This document shows, one piece after another, positions 13,616 to 40,263 of a stretch of DNA of 40,514 nt. Every line of letters begins with the position of its first letter. Within the stretch, counting starts at the first letter, position 1. The stretch lies in IMG/VR virus record IMGVR_UViG_2529292831_000017, positions 1 to 40,514 of that record. One strand, 5' to 3'. The notes under the pieces are model-generated. The model was not told the origin of the DNA. It saw nothing but the letters and a program-made list of their open reading frames with translations, and ran no database searches. The DNA is from a virus. Its lineage: Duplodnaviria > Heunggongvirae > Uroviricota > Caudoviricetes. The translations under genes were made by a program, and so were the position numbers.

Positions 13616-14467
13616 ATGTTTACTGTTGGTATTTACGGCTTTACTCTAACAAAGATAACTCACTTTTCATTCGGGACAATGTATCCAATAGAAACCAGTT
13701 TTCTTAAATTAAAAAAATATAGACAAGACAAGGAAAAATTATATCTTACTGCGCTCCTTGAACTTGACATCATAGACAAGAGCGAAACAGATAATATCAT
13801 ATTTCATCTAGAGAAAATTTTGAGTTTTATAGAACAGAGAGCAGTATTTATCAGACACCAACTAAATAATAAGACTCATAAATTTGACTTGCCCATAGAT
13901 TACCCTCTCTTTATAACTCCTAATATTAACTTATCAAGTTCAGGAGAAATCATTCTTGAAGATTGCTTTTCCAAAAACTCAAGACGCTACTTTATTGAAC
14001 TTGCTATAAATAAGATCATCATTGCTAGAGATCGACCATTTACCACAATACTTCATAAAAATGTATTGGTTTTCTCTAATCCAATAAATTATCTTGATGT
14101 ATCATATTACTTACTTTTTTCTGGCCTTGAGTCATTAGTTCGAGAACGTGAGAATGATTTTAAATCAAACATTACGCCAATAATGTATCGTTACCTCAAA
14201 AAGCATGGGTTTAATATAAATCAACAAAACAATAAACATCATGACATCTCACTTGATATTTACTGTAGCTTAAGGAACGCATTATTTCACAATGGTCAAT
14301 TCCAAACCATGCCGATGAAAAGAGGCTCTAAAACAATCAGTTTTGCACTAAAGGATTTTTACTCACAATTTAAACGATTAAACTGCCTAGTCATATTAAA
14401 AGAAGCAGAATTCAGCGATCATCATATCAACTGGAATTTTAGTGATTATAGAAACCCTTTTATATAA
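13616..14467 (+). CDS. AT-rich accessory gene between S and V: hypothetical 283-aa protein with an Rx4H (HEPN-like) motif
   Basis: Opposite strand to the late operons, GC far below backbone, SD GGAG 5 nt upstream; motif SLRNALFHNG near the C-terminus. The same S-V junction holds the low-GC orf30 in P2. Confidence 0.5.
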   Translation: MFTVGIYGFTLTKITHFSFGTMYPIETSFLKLKKYRQDKEKLYLTALLELDIIDKSETDNIIFHLEKILSFIEQRAVFIRHQLNNKTHKFDLPIDYPLFITPNINLSSSGEIILEDCFSKNSRRYFIELAINKIIIARDRPFTTILHKNVLVFSNPINYLDVSYYLLFSGLESLVRERENDFKSNITPIMYRYLKKHGFNINQQNNKHHDISLDIYCSLRNALFHNGQFQTMPMKRGSKTISFALKDFYSQFKRLNCLVILKEAEFSDHHINWNFSDYRNPFI

Positions 14468-14915: not shown

Positions 14916-15360
14916 GTTTCACCGTCCACATTTCTTCAGGTTCATCAGGTTCCGCTACCGCTTCAACGTTCGACACACTGCCGTCAGTGCTGACCAGCAC
15001 ACGCTCCGTCAGTTGCAGGTTAAGGCTGATATCACAGACATCGTTGCGCAGAATATCCACCTCAAAGGTGAATAGCTTTTCCCGTAACGCCGGGTTATTG
15101 ATGGCATCGGGCTGGTTATCCCGCAGCCACAGCAAAACCGGGGCCATCAGCAGATTCTGATCGCCGCTGAAATCCTCAATCACCACGTTCAGGGTGTAGC
15201 GGTACTCCCATGACATGGAGTTGGCCCCCGTGGCAACCAGCGAACCGTTATCCACAAACAGATGCAGTTTGTCCGGGTTATTACGGACATAAGGCACTGC
15301 TTTATTGAGGGCGTGGCGCAGGGATTGTGGTTTGTTCACTGTTTCGCTCCTGACATGCAA
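14908..15360 (-). CDS. R: Tail completion protein R
   Basis: 150 aa, P2 gpR-like. Confidence 0.8.
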   Translation of the reverse strand: MHVRSETVNKPQSLRHALNKAVPYVRNNPDKLHLFVDNGSLVATGANSMSWEYRYTLNVVIEDFSGDQNLLMAPVLLWLRDNQPDAINNPALREKLFTFEVDILRNDVCDISLNLQLTERVLVSTDGSVSNVEAVAEPDEPEEMWTVKRG

Positions 15361-15592
15361 TAATCATGTCCACTTTGTCTGCACAGACCGCCCAGGCGGC
15401 CTCCGTTTCATCCAGCAACGCGTTCAGATCACCGTTAGTGCGCGGCGCTGCCTGATCCAGCCGACACGGCGTCACCCGCGGACAACCACTGACGGTAAGC
15501 TGCACCTCCGGTGAATGCCGGACGTTTCCGCAGCCGGATAATGTCAGCAGGCAAAGGAGTATCAGCCCAGCGGCGTAAATCCTCGCTCTCAC
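15302..15592 (-). CDS. lysC: o-spanin (LysC / Rz1-like lipoprotein) embedded in lysB in another frame
   Basis: N-terminal signal peptide with lipobox LTLSGC, proline-rich C-terminus, nested in the lysB region. Confidence 0.55.
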   Translation of the reverse strand: MRARIYAAGLILLCLLTLSGCGNVRHSPEVQLTVSGCPRVTPCRLDQAAPRTNGDLNALLDETEAAWAVCADKVDMIIACQERNSEQTTIPAPRPQ

Positions 15593-15863
15593 GTTTCAGT
15601 TCCTCAATCCGGTGTTGTCGTTGTCTCAGCAGTGCAATGGTCTGTTCTGCTTCGGCATAGAGCCGCGCCTGCTCCCGGTTATTGGTTTCAGTCAGAATGG
15701 ACAGGCTGATAAGCTGGCTGTTGCTCTTTGCCAGCGCCTGGCTTTTGCTCTGCAGTTCGTCTGCCTGCGTGCTGATGGTCTGGCTGGCATCAGCCAGACG
15801 CCACGTCTGCCAGCCCAGCGTCGCCAGTAATAACGCCAGCACAACCAGCAGCAACCGGTTCAT
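15435..15863 (-). CDS. lysB: i-spanin (LysB / Rz-like)
   Basis: N-terminal TM helix followed by coiled-coil (MNRLLLVVLALLLATLGW...). Confidence 0.7.
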   Translation of the reverse strand: MNRLLLVVLALLLATLGWQTWRLADASQTISTQADELQSKSQALAKSNSQLISLSILTETNNREQARLYAEAEQTIALLRQRQHRIEELKRESEDLRRWADTPLPADIIRLRKRPAFTGGAAYRQWLSAGDAVSAGSGSAAH

Positions 15864-20418: not shown

Positions 20419-22185
20419 ATGAACACCACACTGACACCCGCAGATCTCGATCCCCGTCGGCAGGCCATGCTGCTGTACTTTCAGGGATACCGCGTAGCCC
20501 GCATTGCTGAAATGCTGGGCGAGAAAGTTGCAACCGTTCACAGCTGGAAAAAACGCGACAAGTGGGGTGACTATGGGCCGCTGGATCAGATGCAGCTCAC
20601 CACCGCCGCACGCTACTGCCAGCTCATTATGAAGGAGCACAAAGAAGGGAAAGATTTCAAAGAGATTGACCTGCTGGCGCGCCAGTCGGAGCGCCACGCG
20701 CGGATCGGCAAGTTTAACAATGGCGGCAACGAAGCCGACTTAAACCCTAACGTCGCCAACCGCAACAAAGGCCCGCGTCGTCAGCCGGAAAAGAACGTTT
20801 TCACCGATGAACAGATTGAGAAGCTGGAAGAAATCTTCCATTCCTCCATGTTCAACTACCAGCGCCACTGGTGGGAAGCCGGAAAAACCAACCGCATCCG
20901 CAACCTGCTGAAGTCACGCCAGATCGGCGCGACCTTTTACTTTGCCCGTGAAGCCCTGATTGACGCCCTGCTTACCGGACGTAACCAGATTTTCCTTTCC
21001 GCCAGTAAGGCACAGGCCCACGTCTTTAAACAGTACATCATCGACTTCGCCAAAGAAGTGGAGGTGGAGCTGAAAGGCGATCCGATGGTGCTTCCCAACG
21101 GGGCCACGCTTTACTTCCTCGGCACCAATGCCCGCACGGCCCAGAGTTACCACGGCAACCTGTATCTGGATGAATATTTCTGGATACCGAAATTCCAGGA
21201 GCTGCGCAAGGTGGCTTCCGGTATGGCTATTCACAAAAAATGGCGACAAACCTATTTTTCCACGCCATCCAGCCTGACACACAGTGCTTATCCGTTCTGG
21301 TCCGGTGCGCTGTTTAACCGTGGGCGCAACAAAACCGATAAGGTGGACATCGACCTGTCCCACAGCAATCTGGCCCCCGGCCTGCTGTGCGCAGACGGGC
21401 AATACCGCCAGATAGTCACCGTGGAAGATGCGGTGCGCGGCGGCTGTAACCTGTTCGACCTCGACCAGCTACGCATGGAGTACAGCCCGGACGAATACCA
21501 GAACCTGCTGATGTGCGAGTTTGTGGACGATCTCGCGTCCGTGTTTCCGCTCAGCGAGCTGCAGGCGTGCATGGTGGACAGTTGGGAAGTCTGGACCGAC
21601 TTTCATGCACTGGCGCTGCGCCCGTTTGGCTGGCGCGAAGTGTGGATCGGTTATGACCCGGCAAAAGGTACGCAAAACGGCGACAGCGCCGGATGCGTAG
21701 TGGTGGCACCGCCAGCCGTGCCGGGTGGTAAGTTCCGCATTCTTGAGCGTCACCAGTGGCGCGGGATGGACTTCCGCGCCCAGGCTGACGCCATCAAAAA
21801 ACTTACCGAACAGTACAACGTGACTTATATCGGAATCGACTCAACCGGCGTTGGTCACGGGGTTTACGAGAACGTGAAAGCGTTCTTTCCTGCCGTCCGG
21901 GAGTTTGTCTACAACCCCAACGTTAAAAACGCCCTGGTACTCAAGGCCTACGACATTATCAGCCACCGCCGTCTGGAGTTTGACGCCGGGCACACCGACA
22001 TTGCGCAGTCATTCATGGCAATCCGTCGCGCAACCACCGCCAGTGGCAACCGCCCAACCTATGAAGCCAGCCGCAGCGAAGAAGCCAGCCACGCCGATCT
22101 GGCCTGGGCAACAATGCACGCACTGTTTAACGAACCACTGCAGGGCGAGTCCGCCAATACCAGTAATATTGTGGAGATTTTTTGA
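20419..22185 (+). CDS. P: Terminase large (ATPase) subunit P
   Basis: 588 aa, P2 gpP-like length; divergent from O. Confidence 0.9.
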   Translation: MNTTLTPADLDPRRQAMLLYFQGYRVARIAEMLGEKVATVHSWKKRDKWGDYGPLDQMQLTTAARYCQLIMKEHKEGKDFKEIDLLARQSERHARIGKFNNGGNEADLNPNVANRNKGPRRQPEKNVFTDEQIEKLEEIFHSSMFNYQRHWWEAGKTNRIRNLLKSRQIGATFYFAREALIDALLTGRNQIFLSASKAQAHVFKQYIIDFAKEVEVELKGDPMVLPNGATLYFLGTNARTAQSYHGNLYLDEYFWIPKFQELRKVASGMAIHKKWRQTYFSTPSSLTHSAYPFWSGALFNRGRNKTDKVDIDLSHSNLAPGLLCADGQYRQIVTVEDAVRGGCNLFDLDQLRMEYSPDEYQNLLMCEFVDDLASVFPLSELQACMVDSWEVWTDFHALALRPFGWREVWIGYDPAKGTQNGDSAGCVVVAPPAVPGGKFRILERHQWRGMDFRAQADAIKKLTEQYNVTYIGIDSTGVGHGVYENVKAFFPAVREFVYNPNVKNALVLKAYDIISHRRLEFDAGHTDIAQSFMAIRRATTASGNRPTYEASRSEEASHADLAWATMHALFNEPLQGESANTSNIVEIF

Positions 22186-23213
22186 TGGGAAAGAGTAAGA
22201 AGAACCGCGCTGCGTCGACGAACCAGATCCAGCATAAAAGTCAAACTACAGCCGAAGCATTCAGCTTCGGTGATCCCGTTCCTGTTCTGGACCGCCGCGA
22301 ACTACTGGACTATGTGGAATGCGTACAAACAGATCGCTGGTATGAGCCGCCAGTAAGCTTTGACGGACTGGCGCGCACCTTCCGCGCCGCCGTGCATCAC
22401 AGTTCACCAATTGCGGTGAAATGCAACATTCTGACCAGTACCTACATCCCCCACCCGCTGCTCAGCCAGCAGGCTTTTTCACGTTTTGTGCAGGACTATC
22501 TGGTATTTGGTAACGCTTACCTGGAGAAACGCACGAACCGGTTCGGTGAAGTTATCGCCCTTGAGCCTGCTCTGGCAAAATACACCCGACGTGGGTTAGA
22601 CCTGGATACCTACTGGTTTGTGCAATACGGTATGACAACCCAGCCGTATCAGTTCACGAAAGGCAGCATTTTTCATCTGATGGAACCGGACATCAACCAG
22701 GAGATCTACGGCCTGCCCGGCTATCTTTCTGCCATTCCATCCGCCCTGCTCAACGAGTCCGCCACGCTGTTCCGCCGTAAGTATTACATCAACGGCAGCC
22801 ATGCAGGCTTCATCATGTACATGACCGACGCCGCGCAGAATCAGGAGGATGTGAACAACCTCCGCAACGCGATGAAAAGTGCCAAAGGTCCAGGCAACTT
22901 CCGCAACCTGTTTATGTACTCGCCTAACGGCAAAAAAGACGGGCTTCAGATCATCCCATTGTCAGAAGTCGCGGCGAAGGATGAATTTCTTAACATCAAG
23001 AACGTAAGTCGGGATGACATGATGGCGGCGCATCGTGTGCCGCCGCAGATGATGGGGATAATGCCAAACAATGTTGGGGGGTTTGGGGATATAGAAAAAG
23101 CCAGTTGCGTTTTTGTGCGAAATGAGTTAACTCCTTTACAAAAAAGACTTGTAGAAATTAATATTTGGCTAAAGAAAAAAATAATAGCCTTCAAAGATTA
23201 TTCATTGAATTAG
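22182..23213 (+). CDS. Q: Portal protein Q
   Basis: 343 aa, 4-bp overlap with P; P2 gpQ-like. Confidence 0.9.
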   Translation: MMGKSKKNRAASTNQIQHKSQTTAEAFSFGDPVPVLDRRELLDYVECVQTDRWYEPPVSFDGLARTFRAAVHHSSPIAVKCNILTSTYIPHPLLSQQAFSRFVQDYLVFGNAYLEKRTNRFGEVIALEPALAKYTRRGLDLDTYWFVQYGMTTQPYQFTKGSIFHLMEPDINQEIYGLPGYLSAIPSALLNESATLFRRKYYINGSHAGFIMYMTDAAQNQEDVNNLRNAMKSAKGPGNFRNLFMYSPNGKKDGLQIIPLSEVAAKDEFLNIKNVSRDDMMAAHRVPPQMMGIMPNNVGGFGDIEKASCVFVRNELTPLQKRLVEINIWLKKKIIAFKDYSLN

Positions 23214-23250: not shown

Positions 23251-24933
23251 TTACAAATACCGTCTAACACGTATTTTATTAATGCTCGACTCATTTCCAA
23301 TTCTTATCAAAGCATTTCTCGCTTTTTCTCCGATGCGTTTCATTCTTTCTGAACCATTGCTATACCCACCAAACTTAAGAGCAGTAGCTATTATTGAATC
23401 ACCACCATCAAGAATGACTTTTTTAAATAAATCATAGTAGTCATCCTCTGAGGCAGCATCCAATATTTCCTCGTGCCTATCAGACCAACCATTCTGACTT
23501 GATAATTTTATTAGAACATCCTTTATAGAACCATCCAGATTTAAAGTAGTAGAATAATCTTGGATTTTTGACTTTAACTCAGCATCTTTTATAGGATGAA
23601 CATTCATGTAAATAGATTGAACATATTCCTTAAGAGCATCATTACCGTAATTAATAAATTTACTTATTAATTCACTTGCTTTAATATTTTCACCTAAATC
23701 TCTATACAGTCCGACAACACTATCCAAGTCACTTGGAGTTACATACTCTATCCCACCAACCACCGCTTGATATAGATTATCAATAACCTGATTTCGGTTA
23801 TCTTCAAATGAATTATAGAAAAGCTTCCATGCTTCAAACAGTGAACCTCGCTTACTATCACGGATAAGTTCATCATTCCTTAGACTTACTTGCCTTTGGA
23901 AATTGTTCATATCAATATATCCATGCCTTACCATGTCTATAAGGACTTCATCAAGTTCGTTTGTTTTTTTATAATCATATATAAGCAAAGTATTAAGCCA
24001 TTTTTTTTCTTTTCCATCCTCTTTTTCATCACGCATATAGATATTTCTCATATTTCTAATATACTCCAATGATGGTACATCTCCATCTGGAGTAAATGCG
24101 TAATGACTCCAACAATACAAAGTTAAGGAGTGTGCGACTTCATTTGCAATTTTTTCAAAATTAACGTTAATGCCAGGTAACAAGGCTAGCAAAAACCGCT
24201 CTATTTTTTTCAGTATCCTAATATTCTTAATACCCAGGGAAATGGAGTATTTGCTTAATAATTTATGAACATCAGAATTATTTTTATATGCTATAACTGC
24301 ACATTCTTCTGGAGTAGGATTATAGGTAATCTCTCTATCAATAACCTTTTCTTTATAAGTGGAGTAGTCATCCATACCACTTGTCCCGTTATTAAGTAAA
24401 AGAACCACCTTACAATTTTTTTGTTCTTTCAATAAAGAAACCAACCCTAAGACATCTTTCACTTCTAAATTTTTACCACGTCTTTCTAAGTCATCTATGA
24501 CTACAATAACATTAGTAATTGACATAAATGACATTGACTCAAGTGTCGTAGTGAAATTTTTCAAAAAAGGTGTATCTTTTAACACACGAGCGGTCTTTCT
24601 AGTGCAGGATTCAAGAAGCCCCTTTGCATTTTGTGTTGCTGTTTTTAAATTAGGTTTGTTTCCAATGAAATCTTTCGTAATTGTATTTTCAAAGATGGAG
24701 TATTTTAATGCGTCCAATGAATTAACACCAAAAAGAGAGACGTAACTATATCTATTAAATGCAATCTTATTTTTATTTTCCTTTAAGAAAGCATTCCAAG
24801 TATAGGTTTTCCCAATCCCCCACTCACCCTGAATAGCCATTACCTCAGGTTCTGCAGATGAAATAAAGTCTGACAACTGTTCTTTAATATAGTCTAATGA
24901 CATGTACATTCTCCGAGATAGATAGTCATCCAT
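23251..24933 (-). CDS. Accessory gene: KAP-family-like P-loop NTPase (560 aa)
   Basis: Walker A GEWGIGKT and Walker B VIVVIDDLERR (the GxWGxGK / hhhhDDLDR pattern of KAP NTPases); very AT-rich; lies between cos and Q. Confidence 0.6.
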   Translation of the reverse strand: MDDYLSRRMYMSLDYIKEQLSDFISSAEPEVMAIQGEWGIGKTYTWNAFLKENKNKIAFNRYSYVSLFGVNSLDALKYSIFENTITKDFIGNKPNLKTATQNAKGLLESCTRKTARVLKDTPFLKNFTTTLESMSFMSITNVIVVIDDLERRGKNLEVKDVLGLVSLLKEQKNCKVVLLLNNGTSGMDDYSTYKEKVIDREITYNPTPEECAVIAYKNNSDVHKLLSKYSISLGIKNIRILKKIERFLLALLPGINVNFEKIANEVAHSLTLYCWSHYAFTPDGDVPSLEYIRNMRNIYMRDEKEDGKEKKWLNTLLIYDYKKTNELDEVLIDMVRHGYIDMNNFQRQVSLRNDELIRDSKRGSLFEAWKLFYNSFEDNRNQVIDNLYQAVVGGIEYVTPSDLDSVVGLYRDLGENIKASELISKFINYGNDALKEYVQSIYMNVHPIKDAELKSKIQDYSTTLNLDGSIKDVLIKLSSQNGWSDRHEEILDAASEDDYYDLFKKVILDGGDSIIATALKFGGYSNGSERMKRIGEKARNALIRIGNESSINKIRVRRYL

Positions 24934-24970
24934 ATTATAACCCGAGTACTATCAAAGTAATAAGCGCGCG

Positions 24971-24989
24971 CTCGTATCCCCGCCACGCC
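24971..24989. other. Prophage cos site (186-type cohesive-end sequence)
   Basis: Reverse complement reads GGCGTGGCGGGGATACGAG, homologous to the 19-nt P2/186 cohesive end, and the flanking GCCCGCTTT...GCGGTTT also matches the second cos at 40245-40263. Confidence 0.6.
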
Positions 24990-25032
24990 TGCCCGCTTTA
25001 TGTAGCGGTTTTCATGCGCCTGCATGACATAA

Positions 25033-25057
25033 GCAAAATCCCGCCACTCCTGGCGGG
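25033..25057 (-). terminator. Rho-independent terminator downstream of the 203-aa membrane protein gene
   Basis: CCCGCCA / TGGCGGG stem with a T-run on the - strand (ATTTTGC). Confidence 0.5.
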
Positions 25058-25149
25058 CCTCAGCTAAAACGATCCTCAAACGATCATGCGGATTCATGCG
25101 GCATAGACATGCACAATCTCCAAAGCGGGCATCGAGACTTTTTGGAAAC

Positions 25150-25761
25150 CTACGTAACCACAGTTAATGTGTGCATCCTGTCTCGAATTGCATCACACGT
25201 CTCATCAAAAAGCTTGGTGATGGTTGTATGGTTCAACTCCGCCTCTTTCCAATAATTTTGCCCGTCAAATTCTGGATCGCTATGCTTAAACGATATTGAC
25301 TCTGAAAGGCATTCCTTCCGGAAACGGTCCAAGATTATATAAACCTCTGGTGAGATGAACGGTTTGTTAGATTCAACACTTGTAACAAAAGTGTTAAATG
25401 CATCAAAAAAAACTTTCAACCTTCTAAATTTTCTCTCTTCAAATGGTTCGTTGGGGTCAACATGATCCAGCGCAGGCCTCAGCTTAAGCACGCTTTCTCT
25501 GGTTTCAAACATCGAATTCCAAATGAGACTATATGCTGATAACTCCTTATCAAAATACGCTTTCGTTACATAAACAGAATTGTCTAACTTAGCCTTTATT
25601 CTTTCATTAGTTGCACTCAGTTGTGATTGAAATTCAGCAATATCTTTGTTTAGCCGCGACTTATATCTTTCTAAATAAACTTTCCCGATCCAAACAAATA
25701 TGCCAGATGCAACAAAAGACACCCCACCCAACGAAGCCAGAACTTTAAAGACCAAATCCAT
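25150..25761 (-). CDS. Accessory gene: 203-aa protein with one N-terminal TM helix and a coiled-coil-rich body
   Basis: Hydrophobic N-terminus LVFKVLASLGGVSFVASGIFVWIG; GC below backbone; between the SOS operon and cos, where P2 carries tin/old. Confidence 0.5.
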   Translation of the reverse strand: MDLVFKVLASLGGVSFVASGIFVWIGKVYLERYKSRLNKDIAEFQSQLSATNERIKAKLDNSVYVTKAYFDKELSAYSLIWNSMFETRESVLKLRPALDHVDPNEPFEERKFRRLKVFFDAFNTFVTSVESNKPFISPEVYIILDRFRKECLSESISFKHSDPEFDGQNYWKEAELNHTTITKLFDETCDAIRDRMHTLTVVT

Positions 25762-25809
25762 TGCGCCCCCACCTGCAAAAATAGTATTCCATTATAAGCT
25801 AATACATTT

Positions 25810-26025
25810 TTAATCAAACAGGGGATAATTCGCGTCAACCTCATCACTTCTCTGCTCTACCCTAGTGACTTCCATCAAAAACCCCAGGCCGTCATATAGC
25901 GAAACGGGGAATTCCAGCTCAAGCCAGAAGCAGTCTTCATAGATGCGGCCCAACCAAAAACCTCCGCCACACTCCTTTGGGCGTTGAAAGAAGACCCAGT
26001 CGCCAAGGGTTAAACGTTCCAGCAC
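25810..26025 (-). CDS. Hypothetical 71-aa protein
   Basis: ORF only; position downstream of the DinI-like gene. Confidence 0.3.
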   Translation of the reverse strand: MLERLTLGDWVFFQRPKECGGGFWLGRIYEDCFWLELEFPVSLYDGLGFLMEVTRVEQRSDEVDANYPLFD

Positions 26026-26143
26026 CTAGCCCCGATAAATAATCTGGTGATTACTGTCTTTTTTACCCATGGCTAACGCCTCGCTACTCTCGTTGTTCAA
26101 CCTTGCTGACGTCAGATTCAAGTTCTTACATCAGGAACGTTCC

Positions 26144-26377
26144 TTAGTGCAGCCAGCTGTCGTCTTCCCAAACCTGTTGCATAATTTCCATCACCCGCTT
26201 TTTGTCTTCATCAAGCTTTAAGCCACTCAGCTCAACGCCGTTTGCCGACCCTTTACGGATGCGGATAGCGGTCTTGGGATAGATGGGTAGCAGGTTGCGG
26301 TAAAGCTCGGACTCCAGAGCGTCCAGGGTAGACTGGCTAATCTTCTGCTCTTTATCGATCATTATTTCAATGCGCAT
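26144..26377 (-). CDS. dinI: DinI-like protein (77 aa from internal ATG)
   Basis: MRIEIMIDKEQKISQSTLDALESELYRNLL...DKKRVMEIMQQVWEDDSW aligns with E. coli DinI (MRIEVTIAK...ALAGEL...EILQETWE). Confidence 0.75.
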   Translation of the reverse strand: MRIEIMIDKEQKISQSTLDALESELYRNLLPIYPKTAIRIRKGSANGVELSGLKLDEDKKRVMEIMQQVWEDDSWLH

Positions 26378-26387
26378 AAAAGTCACC

Positions 26388-26576
26388 TCAGCTGATGACA
26401 TCCATTGAGCGGTTGTATTCGTGGCTTCTGATTTTTGCCATGAGTTCATCAGTCAATTCAGAAACCCACTGCAGGGCCAGCCCCTTCTCTTCATCACTAC
26501 ACTCACTAGCCGCTACAAGCTTAAGAAAAAAATCAATGCGCTGGAGCTTCAAAGACTCCAAAAAATAGTCCTGCAT
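26388..26576 (-). CDS. Small protein (62 aa), first gene of the LexA-box operon; possible Tum-like N-terminal part
   Basis: Strong SD AGGAGG 4 nt upstream of the ATG at 26574-26576; the tracked upstream extension runs through the LexA box and is unlikely to be translated. Confidence 0.45.
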   Translation of the reverse strand: MQDYFLESLKLQRIDFFLKLVAASECSDEEKGLALQWVSELTDELMAKIRSHEYNRSMDVIS

Positions 26577-26619: not shown

Positions 26620-26635
26620 CTGCTTATATTTACAG
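26620..26635. promoter_or_regulatory. LexA box (SOS operator)
   Basis: CTGCTTATATTTACAG fits CTG-N10-CAG with an AT-rich centre; an adjacent weaker half-site CTGTATAGATAATCAC at 26605-26620. Confidence 0.65.
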
Positions 26636-26729: not shown

Positions 26730-29144
26730 TTAATACAGGTTCCGCCACTTATCATCTTCCTGCAAACGCTGGTTCCGATAGAAGACACGCAGGCCTGCTC
26801 CTGACGGAATACTGCCGCCGCGAAGGAGTAAATCGACCTCTTTCTCGCTGCCATCAAATCCTCTGGACTTCAGTTCATAGACGAGCTGCTGTCGTTGATG
26901 GTCTGTAATTCGCTGTTTGTAGTCTCTACGCCGTTTCGGTTTCACCAGGCGTAACCTTGCAGCCAGTTCCCGGCGCTCTTTTTTGTTCATACTGTGCAGG
27001 TAATCGTGCAACTCCTTGTCATCCATGTGGGTAATGTCCGTTCTGGTATCCCCATCAGCTGATTTGTCTTTCCCTTGTTGGTTCAAATTTTCAGCAAGGG
27101 GACAGTTATTGCCACGAGTCCAAGGGGCGCAAGCGCCCTGGTCGGCTGCCGCCTCCTGAACGTCAACGGCCTTACGAACCATTTTCCACTTCACCGCATG
27201 AGTGCAGATCTTGCCCTCTGCAATGGGTGACCAGATGCCATAAATACGAATACCGTGATCGCCATAGGCGGTCGGTTCTTCGTTGATTTCATAAGCAGTT
27301 CTGATGAGGTGATATTTGCGGGGAACCAGTACGCCGCCCTGCTTCATGATGTAGGTGGCAAAACAACCAGCATCAGCAGCAGCCAGGATTGCATCAAGGC
27401 GCGGGTTATCCAGTACCGGCGCACCTGCTTTTTTGTCCCCCTGTTGCCTTGCCGCCTGACCAGCCAGCAATCGCAGTTCACGGTAAGCCTGACGCCCCGG
27501 AATGCCAAAGAAGCGGAATTGCTGAACACGATGCAGAGACGCCCAGGCATTAACGTATTCAGCGTTATCACGCAGGGATTTACCCGTTTCCTTGCTGATC
27601 TCGCCAGCCAGACCACGCCCGTCAATGTTCTTACTGATGTATTTCGCGATGTAGCTTGTTGGCGTACCTTTGCGCGGGTTTATCAGCTCAGACTTAAAGC
27701 GTGGTCCCGTGTTATTACCCAGCTCCTCGCGGTCTTCACGAATGGCAAACTTACGCAACAAAGCAGTAATGGTGCGGCGATCTTTTTTGCGCATAAAACA
27801 CAACAGATGCCAGTGAACTGTACCGTCATGATGCGGCTCAGCCACCCGCACGCCATACCAGCGCAATCCGGCTTTGTGCATCGCCTTACGAAATGCAGCA
27901 AACATGCCGACCAGATAATCACTGCTTTGTCTTACCGTCGCATTTGTCCAGGTCGGGTTGGGCCTGCCGTTATTTAGCGTGGAATGGAAACGTGACGGAC
28001 AGGTGATGGTGTAGAAAACGGCGCAGTCACCGCGCATTTCCGCGATAAGCTCCAGACCTTTAACACAGGCCATCATCTCATTGCGGCGATGCGCAGGGTT
28101 GCTGCTGCTGGCGTTTACCACATCCTCCATGTCCAGCGTGTCGCCGTCTTCGTTCACCAGTTCATGAGAACGGAAAAACTCCAGTGACTTGCGGCGCTGC
28201 TCACGTTTATGCATCACGGCTTCATAGCTGACATAGGGAGATGCTTTTTTGCTGACCAGGCAAACAGCACGCAACTGATCTTCCCGCCATTCGCAACGCA
28301 TCTTCCACAATTTCCGATACCACCAGTCGGCGCACAGCATACGCGCCAGCGACCCCGGAATGAGTTCATAGGGCACGGGTTTACGGCGGTTTCTTTTCCG
28401 GCGGAGTTGCTCAAACGCAGGCGGTATGACATCCAGTCGCAGGGTTTCTGCTGCCACCTTTTCCCATGTCTTGCGGATTTCTTCTGGCTTAACATCATCG
28501 GTGGCATACAAATCGCCACAAGCAGCATCAAGGCACATGCTCATATGCGCAGCTACCAAGGTGGACAGGCGTTTCACCTGATCCTGACTCATTTCAGGCA
28601 GAATCAGCAGGCCATCCAGCCCTTCATGGCTTGCCATAAAGCGAAAAGAAGTGGATAGCTGACTGTCGCGTACATGCTCCAGCCGTTCCAGACATGGCTT
28701 AATCGTCTCACACAAATAGCGGGAATAAGCCTTTGGCCTGCCCAGGCTGCTGAAGTATTCAATACGTTGCATCAGCGGCTTGCTGATATGGGAAGGCTGG
28801 GCGTTAACGTCCGCCAGAATGACCATGTCTGGATTAAAACGCTGCTGCTCATGCGCCAGCTTTGCCCAGCTAATGAGCTTATCCTGCTCCATTTCGCGTT
28901 GGACAGGATCACGGGATTCATTAAAGAAATAACGCTCCCAGACCTGAGCACTCAGTGCCTCGCGGCGCAGCTGTTCCTGCTCGTTATCGGCAGCGTACAG
29001 AGTGATCAGGTTTGAAAGCGCAGAAACCGGCGCGACTTCCGCCGGGTCCAGATAAGGGTTAATGGCCTTTTTCGGGCTGTTCCATGAGAATGCTGCGGCG
29101 GCCTCGTTAAAGCCGCTGCAGTTGTTCATATCAGCATGGCTCAT
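26730..29144 (-). CDS. A: Replication initiation endonuclease A (rolling-circle initiator)
   Basis: 804 aa; contains the tyrosine motif [12 protein letters not shown] typical of P2 gpA-family initiators. Confidence 0.9.
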
Positions 29145-34146: not shown

Positions 34147-35358
34147 ATGAAAATTAATAAAATTAGTACCACAGATTATGTAGCAATGCTTAATGAAATA
34201 TTATTCGAAATAGAGTCCAAACCACTATTAAAAGCTCCTTATCTCGCGGGAAATAATATCATTAAAGATTTTAACAATAGGGTTAAATGTTACCTAGAAG
34301 TCATAAACAAGATTTACAGTAAAAACCCTCACAACCTTGTAATTCGTGAAATAAAATCAAAAATAAAAAGCACAAAAACACTCTCGGATAAAATTTCAGA
34401 AACACTTAGATTATATTTAAACGGTAAAATCAAAGAATCTTACCTAACATTTGATCACGCTATCACCAAGACAAATATAAATGACCACATCTATAATATG
34501 TCCGTTCCATTAAGTGTGTTTTGTCATCCTGGAAAACCTCTATTTCGCGTAAGAAAAAGCGATCAAATAATAAAAGAAAGGCGTGATATCTTTCATATTC
34601 CTTTTTCTAAACGTTATCTTGTGAATGCACAAAGATACTCAGTCTCAGGCCTTCCTTGTTTATATTTAGGAACCTCTATTTTTGTATGTTGGCAAGAAAT
34701 GGAAAAACCAGACTTTGATAAATTATATGTATCTTCATTCATCACAGAGTCTGGTTCATCACATAGAATACTTAACCTTGGTTATAATTTGAGATCAGCA
34801 TTGAACATAAACACCTTAGCATGGCTGTTAGATAATGATACTGAAGGAACTATGAATAGGGTCATTTCGAACTTAATTTCCTGGCCACTTGTGTTAGCCT
34901 GTAATTATACAAAACAACATAAAAACTCTAGTTTCAACCCTGAGTACATAATCCCCAACCTTCTTATGCAATGGCTCAGCAGCAATGAAAATAAGGGCAT
35001 AGCCGGTATCGCTTATCGCACGACTAAAATTCTCAATCAAAAAGATAGTGATATTGGTATTAATATAATCATGCCACCTAAAATGGATAATATTTTGGAT
35101 TCTGGTTATGATTACTGCCCACACTTACTAAGTGTATTTAAATTTACCAAACCTGTTTCATGGCAAGTATTTAGCACTTTAAACGTCAAGACCGATGGTA
35201 TGGATGAAGATAGACTCATAATGGGAGGACCAACTCCAGCATCAGGTACAATTGAAGATTTTGATGAATCGCTAGTGGAATATTACAATAATACCTCATT
35301 CAAAAAAGTTCAATTGTTAATTCATAAAATGATGAAGCATGATTATCTTGAGCCTTAA
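34147..35358 (+). CDS. Accessory gene: 403-aa protein with RES-domain-like motifs
   Basis: About 30% GC; starts 4 bp after the int stop; LFRVRK...QRYSVSGLPCLYLGTSIFVCWQEM and later GIAGIAYRTTKI...GINIIMPP follow the RES pattern (conserved Arg, Glu, Ser/Thr). Confidence 0.5.
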   Translation: MKINKISTTDYVAMLNEILFEIESKPLLKAPYLAGNNIIKDFNNRVKCYLEVINKIYSKNPHNLVIREIKSKIKSTKTLSDKISETLRLYLNGKIKESYLTFDHAITKTNINDHIYNMSVPLSVFCHPGKPLFRVRKSDQIIKERRDIFHIPFSKRYLVNAQRYSVSGLPCLYLGTSIFVCWQEMEKPDFDKLYVSSFITESGSSHRILNLGYNLRSALNINTLAWLLDNDTEGTMNRVISNLISWPLVLACNYTKQHKNSSFNPEYIIPNLLMQWLSSNENKGIAGIAYRTTKILNQKDSDIGINIIMPPKMDNILDSGYDYCPHLLSVFKFTKPVSWQVFSTLNVKTDGMDEDRLIMGGPTPASGTIEDFDESLVEYYNNTSFKKVQLLIHKMMKHDYLEP

Positions 35359-35387
35359 GTGGCGGCGTTTTGGCGGTAGAGTATTAA
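35359..35387. repeat. 29-bp imperfect direct repeat, copy 1 (copy 2 at 36317-36345)
   Basis: GTGGCGGCGTTTTGGCGGTAGAGTATTAA versus CTGGCGGCACTTTGGCGGCAGAGCATTAA (24/29 identical); each ends in the stop codon region of a cargo gene. Confidence 0.6.
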
Positions 35388-35391
35388 GAGG

Positions 35392-36345
35392 ATGCAGTTA
35401 CAAAAAACCTCTAACTCCATTATAGAAATAGGAAGTGATCTGATGAATAACATCATCTATACAAACGAACAATATGAAATCGAAAATCTAAGTATAGCCC
35501 TGTATGCAATTTTCGATAAAATAAAAGAAAGGATTTCCATCGCCGAAGAATCTAACATTTACACTATCAGAGATGTTGGTCATAACTCGGAATCTCAAGT
35601 TTGCAAAAACACTTTTAATAAATTAACGCAATTTTTTGATTCAAACATTCTTTACATCCAAGACTGTGAAGTCTTAATTTCATATATAACAGAGTGCAGT
35701 TTGGAACTCTCTGTTATAGCGCAACAATTTTATGAAATACTCTGGAGCGATTTGTTAATAACCACACCAGACAAAGATTTTAAAGGGATTTTAGTAGCAA
35801 AATCGCCAAAAACAAGCTTGCTATTTTCTTTGTTAAGCATGCTATTTATAAAAATGAATAGTTTGTTTGACTACGTTACTAAAATCTCCTTTGAATTATT
35901 AAAGAGTAACTTCCCAATCTCTAAATACAAGAAATTAATATCCAAAAATAAATTATACGGCAACTATAAAGAATTAGTTTTTTCGACAACAACGGATACC
36001 ATATTTGAAAATAGCAATTTTATAAACACTGTAACATCATTACGAAATCATATAATTCACCACGGTTATATAGATGAGCACCCAAAGGTATATGTTGAAG
36101 TGGAAAATGGCATTGCATTTGGGAGATTTGTACTATTCCCCGATTTGAATGAGAGTGGAGGACTGGAAAATTGCATTAACAGAACTTTATTCTATTCAAA
36201 AGAAACAAAGATTGATGAAAAATTACCTGACTTAATTAAGGAATGCCAAATTAAAGTAATTAACTCGTTGAAGGTACTAATTAAAGATCATGAAGCATTA
36301 GAAGATTCAAGAAAGACTGGCGGCACTTTGGCGGCAGAGCATTAA
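35392..36345 (+). CDS. Accessory gene: 317-aa protein with an Rx4H (HEPN-like) motif
   Basis: About 30% GC; motif SLRNHIIHHG parallels SLRNALFHNG in the 13616 ORF; the ATG at 35443 has the better SD (AGGAAG, 7-nt spacer). Confidence 0.5.
   Translation: MQLQKTSNSIIEIGSDLMNNIIYTNEQYEIENLSIALYAIFDKIKERISIAEESNIYTIRDVGHNSESQVCKNTFNKLTQFFDSNILYIQDCEVLISYITECSLELSVIAQQFYEILWSDLLITTPDKDFKGILVAKSPKTSLLFSLLSMLFIKMNSLFDYVTKISFELLKSNFPISKYKKLISKNKLYGNYKELVFSTTTDTIFENSNFINTVTSLRNHIIHHGYIDEHPKVYVEVENGIAFGRFVLFPDLNESGGLENCINRTLFYSKETKIDEKLPDLIKECQIKVINSLKVLIKDHEALEDSRKTGGTLAAEH
36317..36345. repeat. 29-bp imperfect direct repeat, copy 2
   Basis: See copy 1; a related sequence AGTGGCGGCAAAATGGCGACAGAC also occurs near attL (1107-1130). 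Confidence 0.6.
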
Positions 36346-36659: not shown

Positions 36660-37856
36660 GTGGCACGGACAACACGCCCCCTGACCAACACCGAAGTTCT
36701 GCGCGCTAAAGCGATGGAGAAGGATCTAACGCTGCATGATGGCGATGGCCTTTTCCTAATAGTGAAAACCAGCGGGAAAAAGCTCTGGCGCTTCCGTTAT
36801 CAACGTCCAGTGACAAAACAGCGGACAATGATGGGACTAGGTGCTTTCCCCGCTCTTTCACTTGCTGACGCCCGAGGGTTAAGAGCAGATTACCTTGCCT
36901 TGTTAGCCAACGGAATTGACCCACAAATTCAGGCCGAAGTTGCAAAGGAACAGCAGCAAATCGCTCTGGACAGTATTTTTTCAACGGTTGCCGCTAACTG
37001 GTTCCAGCTCAAAAGTAAAAGCGTTACCCCTGATTACGCAAAAGACATTTGGCGTTCACTGGAGAAAGATGTATTCCCTGTCATTGGTGAGATCCCCGTT
37101 CAGCAAATCAAAGCACGAACTTTGGTTGAAGCCCTTGAGCCAATCAAAGCTCGTGGGGCGCTTGAGACTGTACGTCGACTTGTGCAGCGCATCAACGAGA
37201 TAATGATTTATGCCGTAAACACTGGTCTGATTGATGCCAATCCAGCATCAGGTATTGGAATGGCCTTTGAGAAGCCCAAAAAACAAAACATGCCGACGCT
37301 GCGGCCAGAAGAATTGCCGAAGCTGATGCGTTCTTTGGTTATGTCTAATCTGTCTGTTCCGACGCGTTGTCTTATTGAGTGGCAACTTCTCACGCTTGTG
37401 CGCCCTTCTGAAGCATCCGGCACTCGATGGGCAGAAATCGATCTCGATGCCAAGCTCTGGACGATCCCAGCCGAACGGATGAAGGCCAAGCGTGAACATA
37501 TTGTTCCTCTATCTCCTCAGGCATTAGAGATTCTGGAAGTAATGAGGCCAATCAGTGCTCACCGTGAGCATGTTTTTCCAAGCAGAAATGATCCAAAGCA
37601 AGCGATGAATAGTCAGACTGCAAATGCCGCGTTAAAACGAATTGGATATGGAGGTAAATTAGTAGCTCATGGTTTGCGCTCAATAGCGAGTACTGCTATG
37701 AATGAAGCTGGTTTTAATTCAGATGTGATTGAAGCAGCACTCGCTCATAGTGATAAAAATGAAGTGCGAAAAGCTTATAATCGCGCGACATATATCAATG
37801 CTAGAAAAGAAATTATGAATTGGTGGGGAAATTGCATCAATAAAAGTAAGATCTAA
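36660..37856 (+). CDS. P4-type tyrosine integrase (CP4-57 IntA-like)
   Basis: 398 aa, GTG start with SD AAGGAG; N-terminal arm-binding-type domain plus catalytic region (HGLRSIAST...LAHSD...VRKAYNRATY); P4-family integrases typically target ssrA and tRNA genes. Confidence 0.9.
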   Translation: MARTTRPLTNTEVLRAKAMEKDLTLHDGDGLFLIVKTSGKKLWRFRYQRPVTKQRTMMGLGAFPALSLADARGLRADYLALLANGIDPQIQAEVAKEQQQIALDSIFSTVAANWFQLKSKSVTPDYAKDIWRSLEKDVFPVIGEIPVQQIKARTLVEALEPIKARGALETVRRLVQRINEIMIYAVNTGLIDANPASGIGMAFEKPKKQNMPTLRPEELPKLMRSLVMSNLSVPTRCLIEWQLLTLVRPSEASGTRWAEIDLDAKLWTIPAERMKAKREHIVPLSPQALEILEVMRPISAHREHVFPSRNDPKQAMNSQTANAALKRIGYGGKLVAHGLRSIASTAMNEAGFNSDVIEAALAHSDKNEVRKAYNRATYINARKEIMNWWGNCINKSKI

Positions 37857-37878
37857 AATTAGATCTTACTTTCATCAA

Positions 37879-38787
37879 TTAGATCATGGTTGCTATGCGT
37901 TCTTTTAAATAACCAAATTGCGTGTAGCCTTCATTCTTTTTAATTAAACTTGCTATTTGAGACTCGTTATAGCTACCTTCAAATCCATAAAGACAGAGCT
38001 CATCATTCCCACTGTAACAAAACTGACATTTATCTACCTCATCATGCAGACATTTTGTTTTCAACCCTTTAATTTCACCAATTAACATTCGGCAGAATTC
38101 GCCAATTAACCACTTACCTTTACATATATTAAGTAAACCTGCTAAGTCTTTGCTTACCCCCATCTGAATAGCAAATTCATCAAGTTCTTTTTCTCGCTCA
38201 ACAATTTTTTCAAAAGCGCCTATATTTTTCAAGTGTTGAACGCTCATCTTATATGATGCTAGAGATTCATAATCTTTCACGCAAGCTTTTTTCAAGCACT
38301 CTAAAGACATATAATACAACGACATTAGAGCCTCTGCTAAATTTTCATAGAGCATCTCAATTAACTCACTGGTTAGCAATTTTGGCTGTATTCTTGTACA
38401 TTGTTCAATAACACATTTTATTGCCTGCCGTGTGATAAAATGGCTTTCCATCGAGTACCATCTCAGCACAAAAACGGCTGAATTATTAACAACTTCACCT
38501 CGGTAGTAGCGAGCATCTCGATCTATAATGCCTAAAATGTAGTGCCCTAAATCCCCCTCATACTCAAGTTCAAGTAATGCCTCAATAAAGTCAATTACAC
38601 CTCTATTACCTTCACTCATATCCTTGAAATTCTGAACAGCAACCACCTCGAAATATTTATCAAGCTGTTGACAAATGCCTTCATAAATTGAAATGTCATC
38701 GACGCCTTCAACGACTAACATTGGCGTTTCAGACATAATTGCCTCATTCAATATTTCATCATACTCCATACTCAGCCAATCGTTCAT
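37879..38787 (-). CDS. ariB: TOPRIM/DUF4435-like nuclease, PARIS AriB-like (302 aa)
   Basis: N-terminal LVVEGVDD glutamate motif and ILGIIDRDARYY DxD motif; AT-rich; 4-bp overlap with the upstream ATPase gene. Confidence 0.55.
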   Translation of the reverse strand: MNDWLSMEYDEILNEAIMSETPMLVVEGVDDISIYEGICQQLDKYFEVVAVQNFKDMSEGNRGVIDFIEALLELEYEGDLGHYILGIIDRDARYYRGEVVNNSAVFVLRWYSMESHFITRQAIKCVIEQCTRIQPKLLTSELIEMLYENLAEALMSLYYMSLECLKKACVKDYESLASYKMSVQHLKNIGAFEKIVEREKELDEFAIQMGVSKDLAGLLNICKGKWLIGEFCRMLIGEIKGLKTKCLHDEVDKCQFCYSGNDELCLYGFEGSYNESQIASLIKKNEGYTQFGYLKERIATMI

Positions 38788-40079
38788 TTCGAATTATTCT
38801 CAATTTTAACCGGTGCAAGTTTAACCAGACTGTTGGGTGACTTCTTAGATATGATAGGGCTATGAGAGGCCACGATTATTTGTGTTTCTGGCACTAATTC
38901 CTGTAGAAGACTCAGCAATGTACGTTGCCATTTGATATTAAGAGAAATTTCTGGCTCATCAATAAGTAGAATATCTCTTCCACGACCTGCAATTATAACT
39001 ATTGATAGAAAGGTAAGAATATGCCTTTCACCACTTGATAATGCTCCGATGGATAAATGAGAGTCTTCAGTTTCAACATATATCTCATGCTTATTAATAA
39101 TTAACTTTTTATCTCCAACCAAGAAGGAGTTAAAGACATCAACCAAGATGTTAATGGAACTTAAAAGTTGTTTCTCAACCTTTAATTCACGAGTCATATT
39201 CATGACTAACTTTCTCAACAGTTGGTTTTCAAGTATTTTATTAACATCAGATTCACTTTGTATTGATGATAAAATATTAACAACATGATTTTTAAAATTA
39301 TTCTCAAAACCATCATCCAACGCTTCAATAATCCTCTCTTTATTTTTATATACATCACTCTCAAAATTCGAAGGCATCACGATATCTTCAGAAGTTTTCT
39401 TTGCATCCACTGCTATGGCCAACGTATCAAACAACGCATTTTGAATTCTTTCAGTAGCTATATTCCTTGCTAATAGATAACGTTCAACAAGCATATTCTC
39501 GATATTACTCATTTTTATATTTTGAAGAAAAACATGTTTTGCATCTAAATCCATATCATCTTTTTTATTTCTCCTCCTGTTGTTTTGATATCTCTTTAGA
39601 AACATTGCCATCCTTTCACTAAACAAATGAATATCTGTCTTCGCAAATAAAGAGCGATATTCTGGATGACCAAGAAATCTCAAAATATCCACTGGTTCAA
39701 CTTTCAATGACTCTGATGTTACGCCCCTCTCCACACCAAGAGATAATGATGTACAATCAGCTAATTCAGAATCGACAAGATCGCTCCAGTCGTATGAGTC
39801 TTTAATAATCCCCTCTTCTCCCTCCTCTTGAATCTGTCTTACTGGTACAAACTCTCTTTCTCCATTATTTTTCTCATAATAGATTTCAACATACATTACA
39901 TTTTCGCTTGCAAGCGACTCATCATCACGTTTAAGGATAGAATGTATTAATTTCAAAAATGTAGTTTTACCGCAACCATTATCACCATAAATAACAGATA
40001 TGTCACCATCAGCAAATTCAACATAAGCTGCTCTGTTAATTGATTGGAAGCCTGCAATGTATATAGATAATAGCTTCAT
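38784..40079 (-). CDS. ariA: ABC-type ATPase, PARIS AriA-like (431 aa)
   Basis: Walker A GDNGCGKTT, ABC signature LSSGERHIL, Walker B ILLIDEPE, H-loop ASHSP; AT-rich. Confidence 0.6.
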   Translation of the reverse strand: MKLLSIYIAGFQSINRAAYVEFADGDISVIYGDNGCGKTTFLKLIHSILKRDDESLASENVMYVEIYYEKNNGEREFVPVRQIQEEGEEGIIKDSYDWSDLVDSELADCTSLSLGVERGVTSESLKVEPVDILRFLGHPEYRSLFAKTDIHLFSERMAMFLKRYQNNRRRNKKDDMDLDAKHVFLQNIKMSNIENMLVERYLLARNIATERIQNALFDTLAIAVDAKKTSEDIVMPSNFESDVYKNKERIIEALDDGFENNFKNHVVNILSSIQSESDVNKILENQLLRKLVMNMTRELKVEKQLLSSINILVDVFNSFLVGDKKLIINKHEIYVETEDSHLSIGALSSGERHILTFLSIVIIAGRGRDILLIDEPEISLNIKWQRTLLSLLQELVPETQIIVASHSPIISKKSPNSLVKLAPVKIENNSK

Positions 40080-40244
40080 TACATCTCCATTATTGCATCA
40101 AGGGTTTAGTTTTAAGAAAATGCCCGAGAAGTTTATTACAACTAACCATATGATTCTACAACCATAAAGACTTTAACTTTTTTCTCATCAATCACAAGTC
40201 CTTGAAGTGAAAATTTATAATTATAAATTCTTTGCCTACGCGCA

Positions 40245-40263
40245 GTGCTTTCCCCGCCTCGCC
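40245..40263. other. P2/P4-type cos site
   Basis: Reverse complement is GGCGAGGCGGGGAAAGCAC, matching (from recollection) the 19-nt P2/P4 cohesive end, in a GC-rich non-coding stretch. Confidence 0.6.

Follow-up and report, generated by a model that had tools for sequence, protein, structure and literature searches.

The DNA analysed here (the window; 40,514 nt) comprises positions 1 to 40,514 of the viral record IMGVR_UViG_2529292831_000017 and is a P2-like (Peduoviridae) prophage integrated beside ssrA. The subject of this report is a gene for a 203-amino-acid (aa) protein, WP_016237789, which lies between the replication gene gpA and the portal gene gpQ and adjoins cos (Table 1). In Escherichia coli 504237 (NZ_CP025862), which is collinear with the window up to ~36.4 kb (17 mismatches), a RefSeq coding sequence (CDS) was found at coordinates identical to those of this open reading frame (ORF). 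A preliminary description of the locus had ascribed to the 203-aa protein a single N-terminal transmembrane (TM) helix, and to its gene a guanine-plus-cytosine (GC) content lower than that of the backbone and a position across cos from a KAP gene. The ORF and its hydropathy profile agree with the first statement, the GC values (38.7% vs ~50-56% for gpP, gpQ, gpA and the adjoining orf71 region) with the second, and the placement of the cos region, between the stop codon of the gene and the KAP gene, with the third. The site had also been equated with the old/tin hotspot of P2, which is in accordance both with the gpA-gpQ position and with the tables of Rousset et al. 2022 (PMC9122126). These authors described the cos-proximal gpA-gpQ hotspot, which holds old/tin and other validated anti-phage systems. 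The protein studied here appears in their Table S5B as P2-hotspot system #39 (103 occurrences, no domain, '1 TM'), the CP025862 locus appears in Table S5A as 'hypothetical + hypothetical + KAP_NTPase + DinI', and system #39 is absent from Table S2 (cloned systems). The results presented below show that the gene is a moron, an accessory gene that stands alone, which a P2-like prophage carries at its cos-proximal defence hotspot, and that its near-identical orthologue is expressed in the lysogen. They also make it a reasonable, as yet unproven, candidate for a new single-gene anti-phage protein.

Comparison with the Enterobacter orthologues gave a ratio of nonsynonymous to synonymous substitution rates (dN/dS) of 0.12 at a dS of ~0.8, i.e. 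this is a real gene under purifying selection. Of 5426 complete E. coli genomes, 52 were found to carry it, each with one copy on the chromosome; this corresponds to ~4% of the genomes (1267) with the same cos-flank backbone. The gene is therefore a rare cargo, variable among otherwise similar prophages. Since the prophage also has holin, lysozyme, LysA-like, LysB and LysC genes of its own, the locus does not correspond to a universally present core lysis or morphogenesis gene, the case that the preliminary description had set against its own proposal. Backbone homology stops at ~25114, and the segment 25762-26143 is present only in genomes carrying the gene. An 83% orthologue occupies the same slot in P2-like prophages of Enterobacter, and a 75% orthologue was identified in a non-P2 island beside smpB in Enterobacter cloacae.

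A link to the KAP gene, for which the preliminary description had proposed a co-occurrence check, did not withstand such a check: KAP lies across cos in only 1 of 41 complete-genome loci carrying the gene and in 2 of 20 IMG/VR loci, where a DUF4145 gene (4 loci), a retron (4 loci) or other genes (the rest) take its place. In strain LF82 a DUF4145 gene is found across cos from the orthologue, and in the Enterobacter prophages with the 83% orthologue this place is taken by an AIPR gene, a retron or a 223-aa gene of unknown nature. In P2-like prophages, cos separates two cargo slots that are independent of each other. On the upstream side, the sequence of orf86 (phrog_2100) accompanies the gene in all of the E. 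coli and Enterobacter P2-like loci examined. However, orf86 was intact in only 6/20 loci and disrupted in 14/20 (the codon-15 nonsense mutation of the window in eight; loss of the start codon, mostly together with the reading frame, in six), whereas the gene for the 203-aa protein was intact in 20/20 IMG/VR loci. Thus, orf86 is decaying while the downstream gene stays intact; it is a pseudogene in the window and was disrupted independently in other lineages. No recurring adjacent gene was revealed among 94 same-strand neighbours of 80 genome loci, or in metagenomic contexts. The gene stands alone, without an obligate partner; KAP and orf86 were both rejected as partners in view of the variable across-cos genes and the decay of orf86.

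A 97%-identical orthologue, CARTA_47 (LF82_789), is present in phage Cartapus of the adherent-invasive E. coli (AIEC) strain LF82. According to published RNA sequencing (RNA-seq) data, Cartapus has only two morons that are expressed in the lysogen, of which this is one. Its level in lysogeny broth (LB) is 7x the prophage background, with normalised reads of 45.8 vs 9.0 for the gene directly upstream (~5x), and its transcript rises from log2 ~5.5 in LB to ~10.5 in macrophages. The ~5x excess over the upstream gene argues for a promoter of its own; judged by this orthologue in LF82, the gene is transcribed from the repressed prophage independently of its neighbours, which is the hallmark of a moron. 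A candidate promoter in the window consists of a perfect -10 hexamer, TATAAT (25796-25791), and two -35 candidates, TTGATT (25817-25812, 15-nt spacer) and TTGACG (25838-25833), with a strong Shine-Dalgarno sequence, AGGTGGGGG, at 25774-25766, before the ATG. This stretch is conserved between the E. coli and Enterobacter loci; a consensus promoter scan did not pick it up because of the spacer length. As regards the terminator that had been assigned to the gene, the hairpin does exist (25057-25040, followed by a T-tract; -18.4 kcal/mol), but it is placed within the cos-flank segment 24960-25114, which is common to 1267 E. coli genomes irrespective of cargo, and therefore belongs to the backbone; the terminator scan as such was not above chance (3 found vs 1.9 expected). 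The other lysogen-expressed Cartapus moron, CARTA_32/LF82_783 ('putative exonuclease', 15x background), also has a counterpart in the window: a 160-aa gene at 1184-1666 (plus strand), between ssrA and ogr, is 98% identical to it. In one phage record the homologue of 1184-1666 is named 'DNA ligase'.

The protein has a single hydrophobic segment (residues ~4-26; the Kyte-Doolittle mean over 19 residues reaches 2.0), which is rich in small residues (G12, G13, S15, A18, S19, G20). In 80 of 83 relatives there are more lysine and arginine residues in the 15 positions after the TM helix than in the 15 positions before it (mean 3.3 vs 0.45), and the N-terminal tails are short and acidic, which is not a signal-peptide pattern. 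By the positive-inside rule, the N-terminus is predicted to lie outside, and the stalk and bundle described below in the cytoplasm. An AlphaFold2 run with a 35-sequence alignment produced five concordant models (pLDDT, predicted local distance difference test, 80-85), in which residues 2-92 form one continuous helix comprising the TM helix, a stalk and the first helix of a bundle; the remaining three helices of this up-down four-helix bundle, against which it packs, are 107-131, 138-160 and 167-200. The preliminary description had spoken of a coiled-coil-rich body. This holds for residues ~27-64, which are stalk- or coiled-coil-like (the weak coiled-coil-type Pfam and NCBIfam matches are all confined to residues 29-75), but not for residues 65-200, which are predicted to form a compact four-helix bundle. 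The length of the bundle is tightly conserved across the family (122-135 residues), and F70, E73, W81, L94, R95, P96, R114, P134, F135, E154, I192, R193 and R195 are invariant or nearly so. Measured from K27 to F70, the stalk is 32-96 residues long, and its length changes by whole helical turns (32, 36, 40, 43, 47, 51, 58), as a rigid helical rod that stays in register would be expected to do. In the structural comparisons, bundles that bind proteins or ligands (such as FAT and Tar/Tsr) matched best, and no enzyme fold was found among the matches. Also among the best matches, although non-significant (E = 0.04), was BFVD P51700, a 23.2-kDa uncharacterised protein whose gene lies between int and cI in the P2-like Haemophilus phage HP1; it might represent a remote analogue that occupies a different moron slot.

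A profile search covering 1.84 billion representative proteins (clustered at 50% identity) revealed 913 homologous clusters at E<=1e-3, all of them of stand-alone genes; 384 clusters reached E<=1e-10. With few exceptions the homologues are 190-230 aa long and have the same end-to-end architecture; the longer ones differ only in longer stalks or N-terminal extensions, without domain fusions. The match to phrog_26391, a family without a known function, is full-length (positions 1-203 of 203, E = 1.8e-142) and is shared by 83/83 relatives. Phage members include proteins of Pseudomonas phage Riah (near cI, profile E 1e-41) and Clostridium phage Maintenon (3e-20); a tblastn search of 50,697 phage records gave matches only in Cartapus, Riah and Maintenon. 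The genes of distant relatives invariably stand by themselves, in contexts that are variable or mobile, some of them inside integrase or resolvase elements. Their neighbourhoods include a methyltransferase-restriction endonuclease fusion with Abi_alpha (PDC-S47), PDC-M36A with DUF2971 (PDC-S31), HigBA with a resolvase, or HigBA with HNH-WYL and an integrase.

The TM/juxtamembrane motif, GG..IV..LSxWLGKVWAxRIxExxK, is strikingly conserved in most relatives. A scan for [SA]xWLGKVWA in one genome per species identified 133 relatives, of which 80 were kept. Proteins with this module occur in Proteobacteria, Firmicutes, Planctomycetota, Acidobacteriota, Nitrospirota, Bacteroidota, Verrucomicrobiota and bacteria of the candidate phyla radiation (CPR). 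The bundle of the type described above was present in only 22/80 of them; the others fall into at least six further C-terminal clusters (15, 12, 9, 4, 2 and 2 members) plus singletons, so that the N-terminal module (GG..LSxWLGKVWAxRIxE; TM, juxtamembrane and coiled-coil parts) is shared by proteins of ~180-460 aa with C-terminal domains of at least seven unrelated kinds. Pfam gave no match for the other C-terminal domains. The conservation of a membrane module on interchangeable cytoplasmic domains suggests a role for this module beyond anchoring. In a crude seed search without a baseline, only 9/80 genome loci had an ORF resembling a recombinase or transposase within 5 kb, for which reason recombinase proximity was not counted as evidence in either direction.

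Scans of the protein against Pfam, NCBIfam and PADLOC yielded only sub-threshold coiled-coil noise, a Pfam scan of the 83 relatives found no family match, and sequence searches of the PDB with two family profiles found no relative. In many complete E. coli genomes WP_016237789 bears the RefSeq/PGAP (Prokaryotic Genome Annotation Pipeline) name 'valyl-tRNA synthetase'. This misannotation arises from a sub-threshold stalk match: residues 31-68 score 16.7 bits against the coiled-coil arm of valyl-tRNA synthetase (PF10458; cut-off 25.9). Given this match and a length of 203 aa, the synthetase identity was rejected. In the literature searched, the accession or sequence is mentioned only by Rousset et al. 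2022 and in the LF82 papers, and it is absent from the DefensePredictor supplements.

Table 1. Coordinates of the gene for the 203-aa protein, its parts and signals, and other features of the window.
Feature	Position	Strand	Remarks
CDS of the 203-aa protein	25150-25761	minus	ATG start; WP_016237789; phrog_26391; P2-hotspot system #39 of Rousset et al. 2022
Single TM helix (predicted)	25684-25752	minus	codons 4-26; hydropathy and conservation; ends in conserved W24-x-G26-K27 juxtamembrane motif
Basic juxtamembrane segment and helical heptad-like stalk (predicted)	25570-25683	minus	codons 27-64
Conserved four-helix bundle (predicted)	25162-25569	minus	codons 65-200; helices 65-92, 107-131, 138-160, 167-200
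Candidate own promoter and ribosome-binding site	25766-25838	minus	from sequence
Terminator-like hairpin	25031-25057	minus	CCCGCCA-GGAG-TGGCGGG and T-tract; 3' of the gene; cos-flank backbone
Cargo cassette (orf86 remnant and the gene), approximate extent	25115-26143	minus	between DinI gene and cos-flank backbone
orf86 (phrog_2100) remnant	25810-26070	minus	accompanies the gene; nonsense codon TAG at codon 15, leaves a 71-aa GTG ORF
gpP	20419-22185		
gpQ (portal gene Q)	22185-23213		
KAP NTPase	23251-24903	minus	across cos from the gene
Prophage cos region	24963-25021		equals Cartapus 'putative cos' 1-59 (window 25021-24963); record-end alignment
19-mer-like cos	24989-24971	minus	GGCGTGGCGGGGATACGAG; within cos region
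DinI-family gene	26144-26377		upstream of the gene
62-aa gene	26388-26576		upstream of the gene; preceded by LexA-box-like site
LexA-box-like site	26620-26635		5' of 62-aa/DinI operon
gpA (replication gene A)	26730-29144		
P4-like integrase	36660-37856	plus	
PARIS: AriB/DUF4435	37879-38787	minus	
PARIS: AriA/AAA_15-AAA_21	38784-40079	minus	
Perfect P2-type cos 19-mer	40263-40245		GGCGAGGCGGGGAAAGCAC

The protein was compared with known systems at the level of sequence, architecture and locus. System #39 of Rousset et al. (PMC9122126) belongs to the same protein family, with a near-identical sequence at the same locus, and was catalogued there without a domain or mechanism. The old and tin genes of P2 occupy the same slot between gpA and cos and are likewise prophage accessory genes, which exclude other phages; no sequence homology with them was detected (tblastn against the 50,697 phage records; PADLOC). 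Old is a soluble ATPase-TOPRIM nuclease and Tin the product of a phage-exclusion gene; neither is known to have a TM anchor combined with a four-helix bundle. An architectural parallel is offered by PdpSau of Staphylococcus aureus prophages and AbiP of Lactococcus. These abortive-infection proteins, each of them a single-gene system encoded on a prophage or plasmid, consist of one TM helix at the N-terminus and a domain in the cytoplasm. However, that domain is an OB-fold-like nucleic-acid binder, whereas the predicted domain of the 203-aa protein is all-helical and without sequence similarity to it, and pdpSau, unlike the gene studied here, belongs to the lysis module. Csx28 of type VI-B2 CRISPR-Cas (10.1101/2021.11.02.466367) is also small and combines a membrane-spanning N-terminus with a helical cytosolic domain; it is reported to form a membrane pore which slows metabolism on infection. 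It needs Cas13b, whereas the 203-aa protein has no partner, and it was not among the best matches listed in the PDB sequence or fold searches.

SieA of P22 provides the example of a prophage-expressed inner-membrane protein sufficient alone for exclusion. In contrast to the protein studied here, which shows no similarity to it and has a predicted cytoplasmic domain, SieA is a member of narrow phage-specific families and blocks the periplasmic/membrane conduit for DNA delivery in P22-like phages alone. The likeness to the four-helix-bundle (4HB) domains of Tar/Tsr and histidine kinases, to FAT of FAK and to the talin and vinculin bundles is confined to the fold (7-13% identity); with respect to 4HB_MCP, there is no Pfam match, one TM helix instead of two, and a location predicted to be cytoplasmic rather than periplasmic. 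Two further proteins with similar labels were set aside: homology to the '1TM' effector of the P4 reverse transcriptase-nitrilase system (hhalign probability 0.5%) was rejected, and the 'Apolipoprotein (1TM)' protein of a Vibrio hotspot, which has a C-terminal TM helix, is unrelated.

Our preferred reading, which we hold tentatively, is that the protein is a one-gene phage-exclusion sensor-effector acting at the cytoplasmic face of the inner membrane. The gene encodes a single-pass inner-membrane protein, with the short acidic N-terminus predicted to face outward and the bundle to lie in the cytoplasm. The stalk would serve as a rigid helical rod, probably coiled-coil and oligomeric, and the bundle as a protein-binding sensor for a component of the infecting phage or for a phage-altered host factor. 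The TM/juxtamembrane module would then be the output, which clusters and perturbs the membrane, and this perturbation would lead to an arrest of the abortive-infection type. The anti-phage role itself (superinfection exclusion or abortive infection, as put forward in the preliminary description), the trigger, the oligomerisation and the membrane effect are all features that we infer, and PdpSau/AbiP and Csx28 would be analogues in architecture only. With the bundle predicted to lie in the cytoplasm, the protein is more likely to act at the cytoplasmic face than to block adsorption or injection from the periplasm. A more far-reaching proposal, unlikely in our estimate, is that the protein is the E. 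coli representative of a large, phylum-spanning unannotated superfamily of single-pass membrane proteins of ~200 aa, which would form a new class of one-gene sensor-effectors in abortive infection, with the glycine-rich TM/juxtamembrane module as the common effector, a coiled-coil stalk of quantised length and at least seven interchangeable types of cytoplasmic phage sensor, among them the four-helix bundle.

Several observations weigh against a sensor-effector in phage exclusion. PADLOC-DB 2.0 contains no match to the protein at E<=1, with only scattered chance-level matches in the 83 relatives, and a search of the literature and supplements found no experiment on the protein or any homologue. 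Foldseek gave no match at E<=1e-3, the four-helix bundle is a generic fold, and the predicted topology has the positive-inside rule as its sole basis. The association of the wider superfamily with mobile elements and defence genes is anecdotal. In addition, the P2 hotspot also carries non-defence cargo (partition systems, Cdt toxin), and when Rousset et al. (PMC9122126) tested 8 additional P2 systems, no more than 3 were protective. The prior for defence is therefore moderate.

If the gene does not act in defence, it may be a factor of lysogenic conversion, i.e. a membrane-tethered adaptor which modulates the host envelope or stress physiology, or recruits or sequesters a host protein, and which might be of benefit inside a host (e.g. 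in macrophage survival of AIEC). We consider this somewhat unlikely. It would account for the increase of the LF82 transcript in macrophages, for the absence of similarity to known defence proteins and for the many superfamily members found in ordinary chromosomal neighbourhoods with no recombinase detected, and it agrees with the presence of non-defence cargo in the hotspot. However, the macrophage rise parallels that of the neighbouring SOS-operon genes and may therefore reflect SOS induction or read-through, while the patchy distribution, low GC content and hotspot position are typical of defence cargo, and defence candidates are found among the neighbours of homologues. Classical superinfection exclusion without cell death, in which the protein would block DNA delivery or an early membrane step, is rather unlikely, as are the means proposed for it, binding of ejection or pilot proteins or of the inner-membrane channel in the manner of P22 SieA, T4 Imm and HK97 gp15. 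An inner-membrane protein encoded at a prophage hotspot, expressed in the lysogen and needing no partner is in line with the SieA precedent, and its steady expression in the lysogen suggests that it is not toxic. On the other hand, the prediction places the globular domain in the cytoplasm, where the stalk holds it off the membrane, and there is no similarity to the exclusion genes of P22, lambda and T4 in the tblastn search of phage records. Known injection blockers form narrow phage-specific families, whereas this family comprises 913 clusters from many phyla, many of them outside prophages; moreover, systems of the P2 hotspot are generally inactive on P2-like phages (Rousset et al. 2022, PMC9122126).

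A function in the lytic cycle, as a lysis regulator resembling an i-spanin or antiholin or as an accessory of cos and packaging, is highly improbable and has been largely refuted. The N-terminal TM helix with a helical body superficially resembles the i-spanins Rz and LysB, and the gene adjoins cos. Nevertheless, the lysis cassette is complete and located elsewhere in the prophage (including lysB, 15435-15863, and lysC, 15302-15550), no conserved neighbour or partner lipoprotein gene accompanies the gene, and the predicted N-out/C-in orientation (80/83 members) is opposite to that of the spanins, which are N-in/C-out with a periplasmic coiled-coil. Carriage by only ~4% of related prophages, expression of the orthologue in the lysogen and the existence of homologues outside phages are equally difficult to reconcile with a lytic role. 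Least credible of all is a two-gene system formed with the KAP NTPase across cos or with orf86. Both genes flank the 203-aa protein gene in the window, KAP matches a defence candidate (see below) and orf86 is its constant companion; however, KAP is rare at these loci and also occurs without the gene, and orf86, besides its nonsense, start-codon and frame losses, is transcribed at background level in LF82.

The type of locus and the catalogue entry were already known, which makes the presence of the gene at this site unsurprising to a specialist; members of the family, and of the superfamily defined by the N-terminal module, are without annotation or structure. Should phage exclusion prove true, a very small (612-nt) single-gene system would be added to the repertoire of the P2 hotspot, and a family of >900 clusters, together with the module superfamily, missed by PADLOC and by Pfam-based annotation, would be opened up. 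The modular architecture offers a lead that is concrete and testable. The combination of a conserved TM module with a stalk varying by whole turns and with swappable bundles would constitute a tractable model of how a cytoplasmic phage signal may be passed to the membrane through one polypeptide. If the protein is not anti-phage, its LF82 orthologue still stems from one of the only two genes for which Cartapus shows expression in the lysogen as well as in macrophages, which would make the protein a candidate lysogenic-conversion factor of adherent-invasive E. coli. In either case, a recurrent RefSeq misannotation is corrected.

Among the neighbouring genes, the KAP-family P-loop NTPase matches the PADLOC candidate PDC-S49 (2e-25) and phrog_4740; 'Reve', a single-gene KAP/ATPase system of P4 satellites, was recently reported to be protective. 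The wording 'SOS operon', used in the preliminary description for the genes upstream, is reasonable, since a LexA-box-like site precedes the 62-aa gene. In CP025862 and LF82 this site is a perfect CTGT-N8-ACAG (CTGTTTATATTTACAG), whereas in the window it is one base off (CTGC, T>C at 26623), which might weaken LexA repression of the 62-aa/DinI operon.

The 3' end of the window (36660-40263) is a P4-like satellite with the genes of a PARIS system (Table 1). Two low-GC genes (403 aa and 317 aa), for which no Pfam or PADLOC match was found, are located at 34147-36345 (plus strand), between the P2-like and P4-like integrases. The otherwise identical strain CP025862 contains different genes at the position of the satellite. 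Finally, a low-GC (31-32%) hypothetical gene at 13616-14467 (plus strand) is inserted, in the opposite orientation, after baseplate gene V and before the genes of tail/virion morphogenesis, and this site seems to be a second slot for cargo in the prophage.

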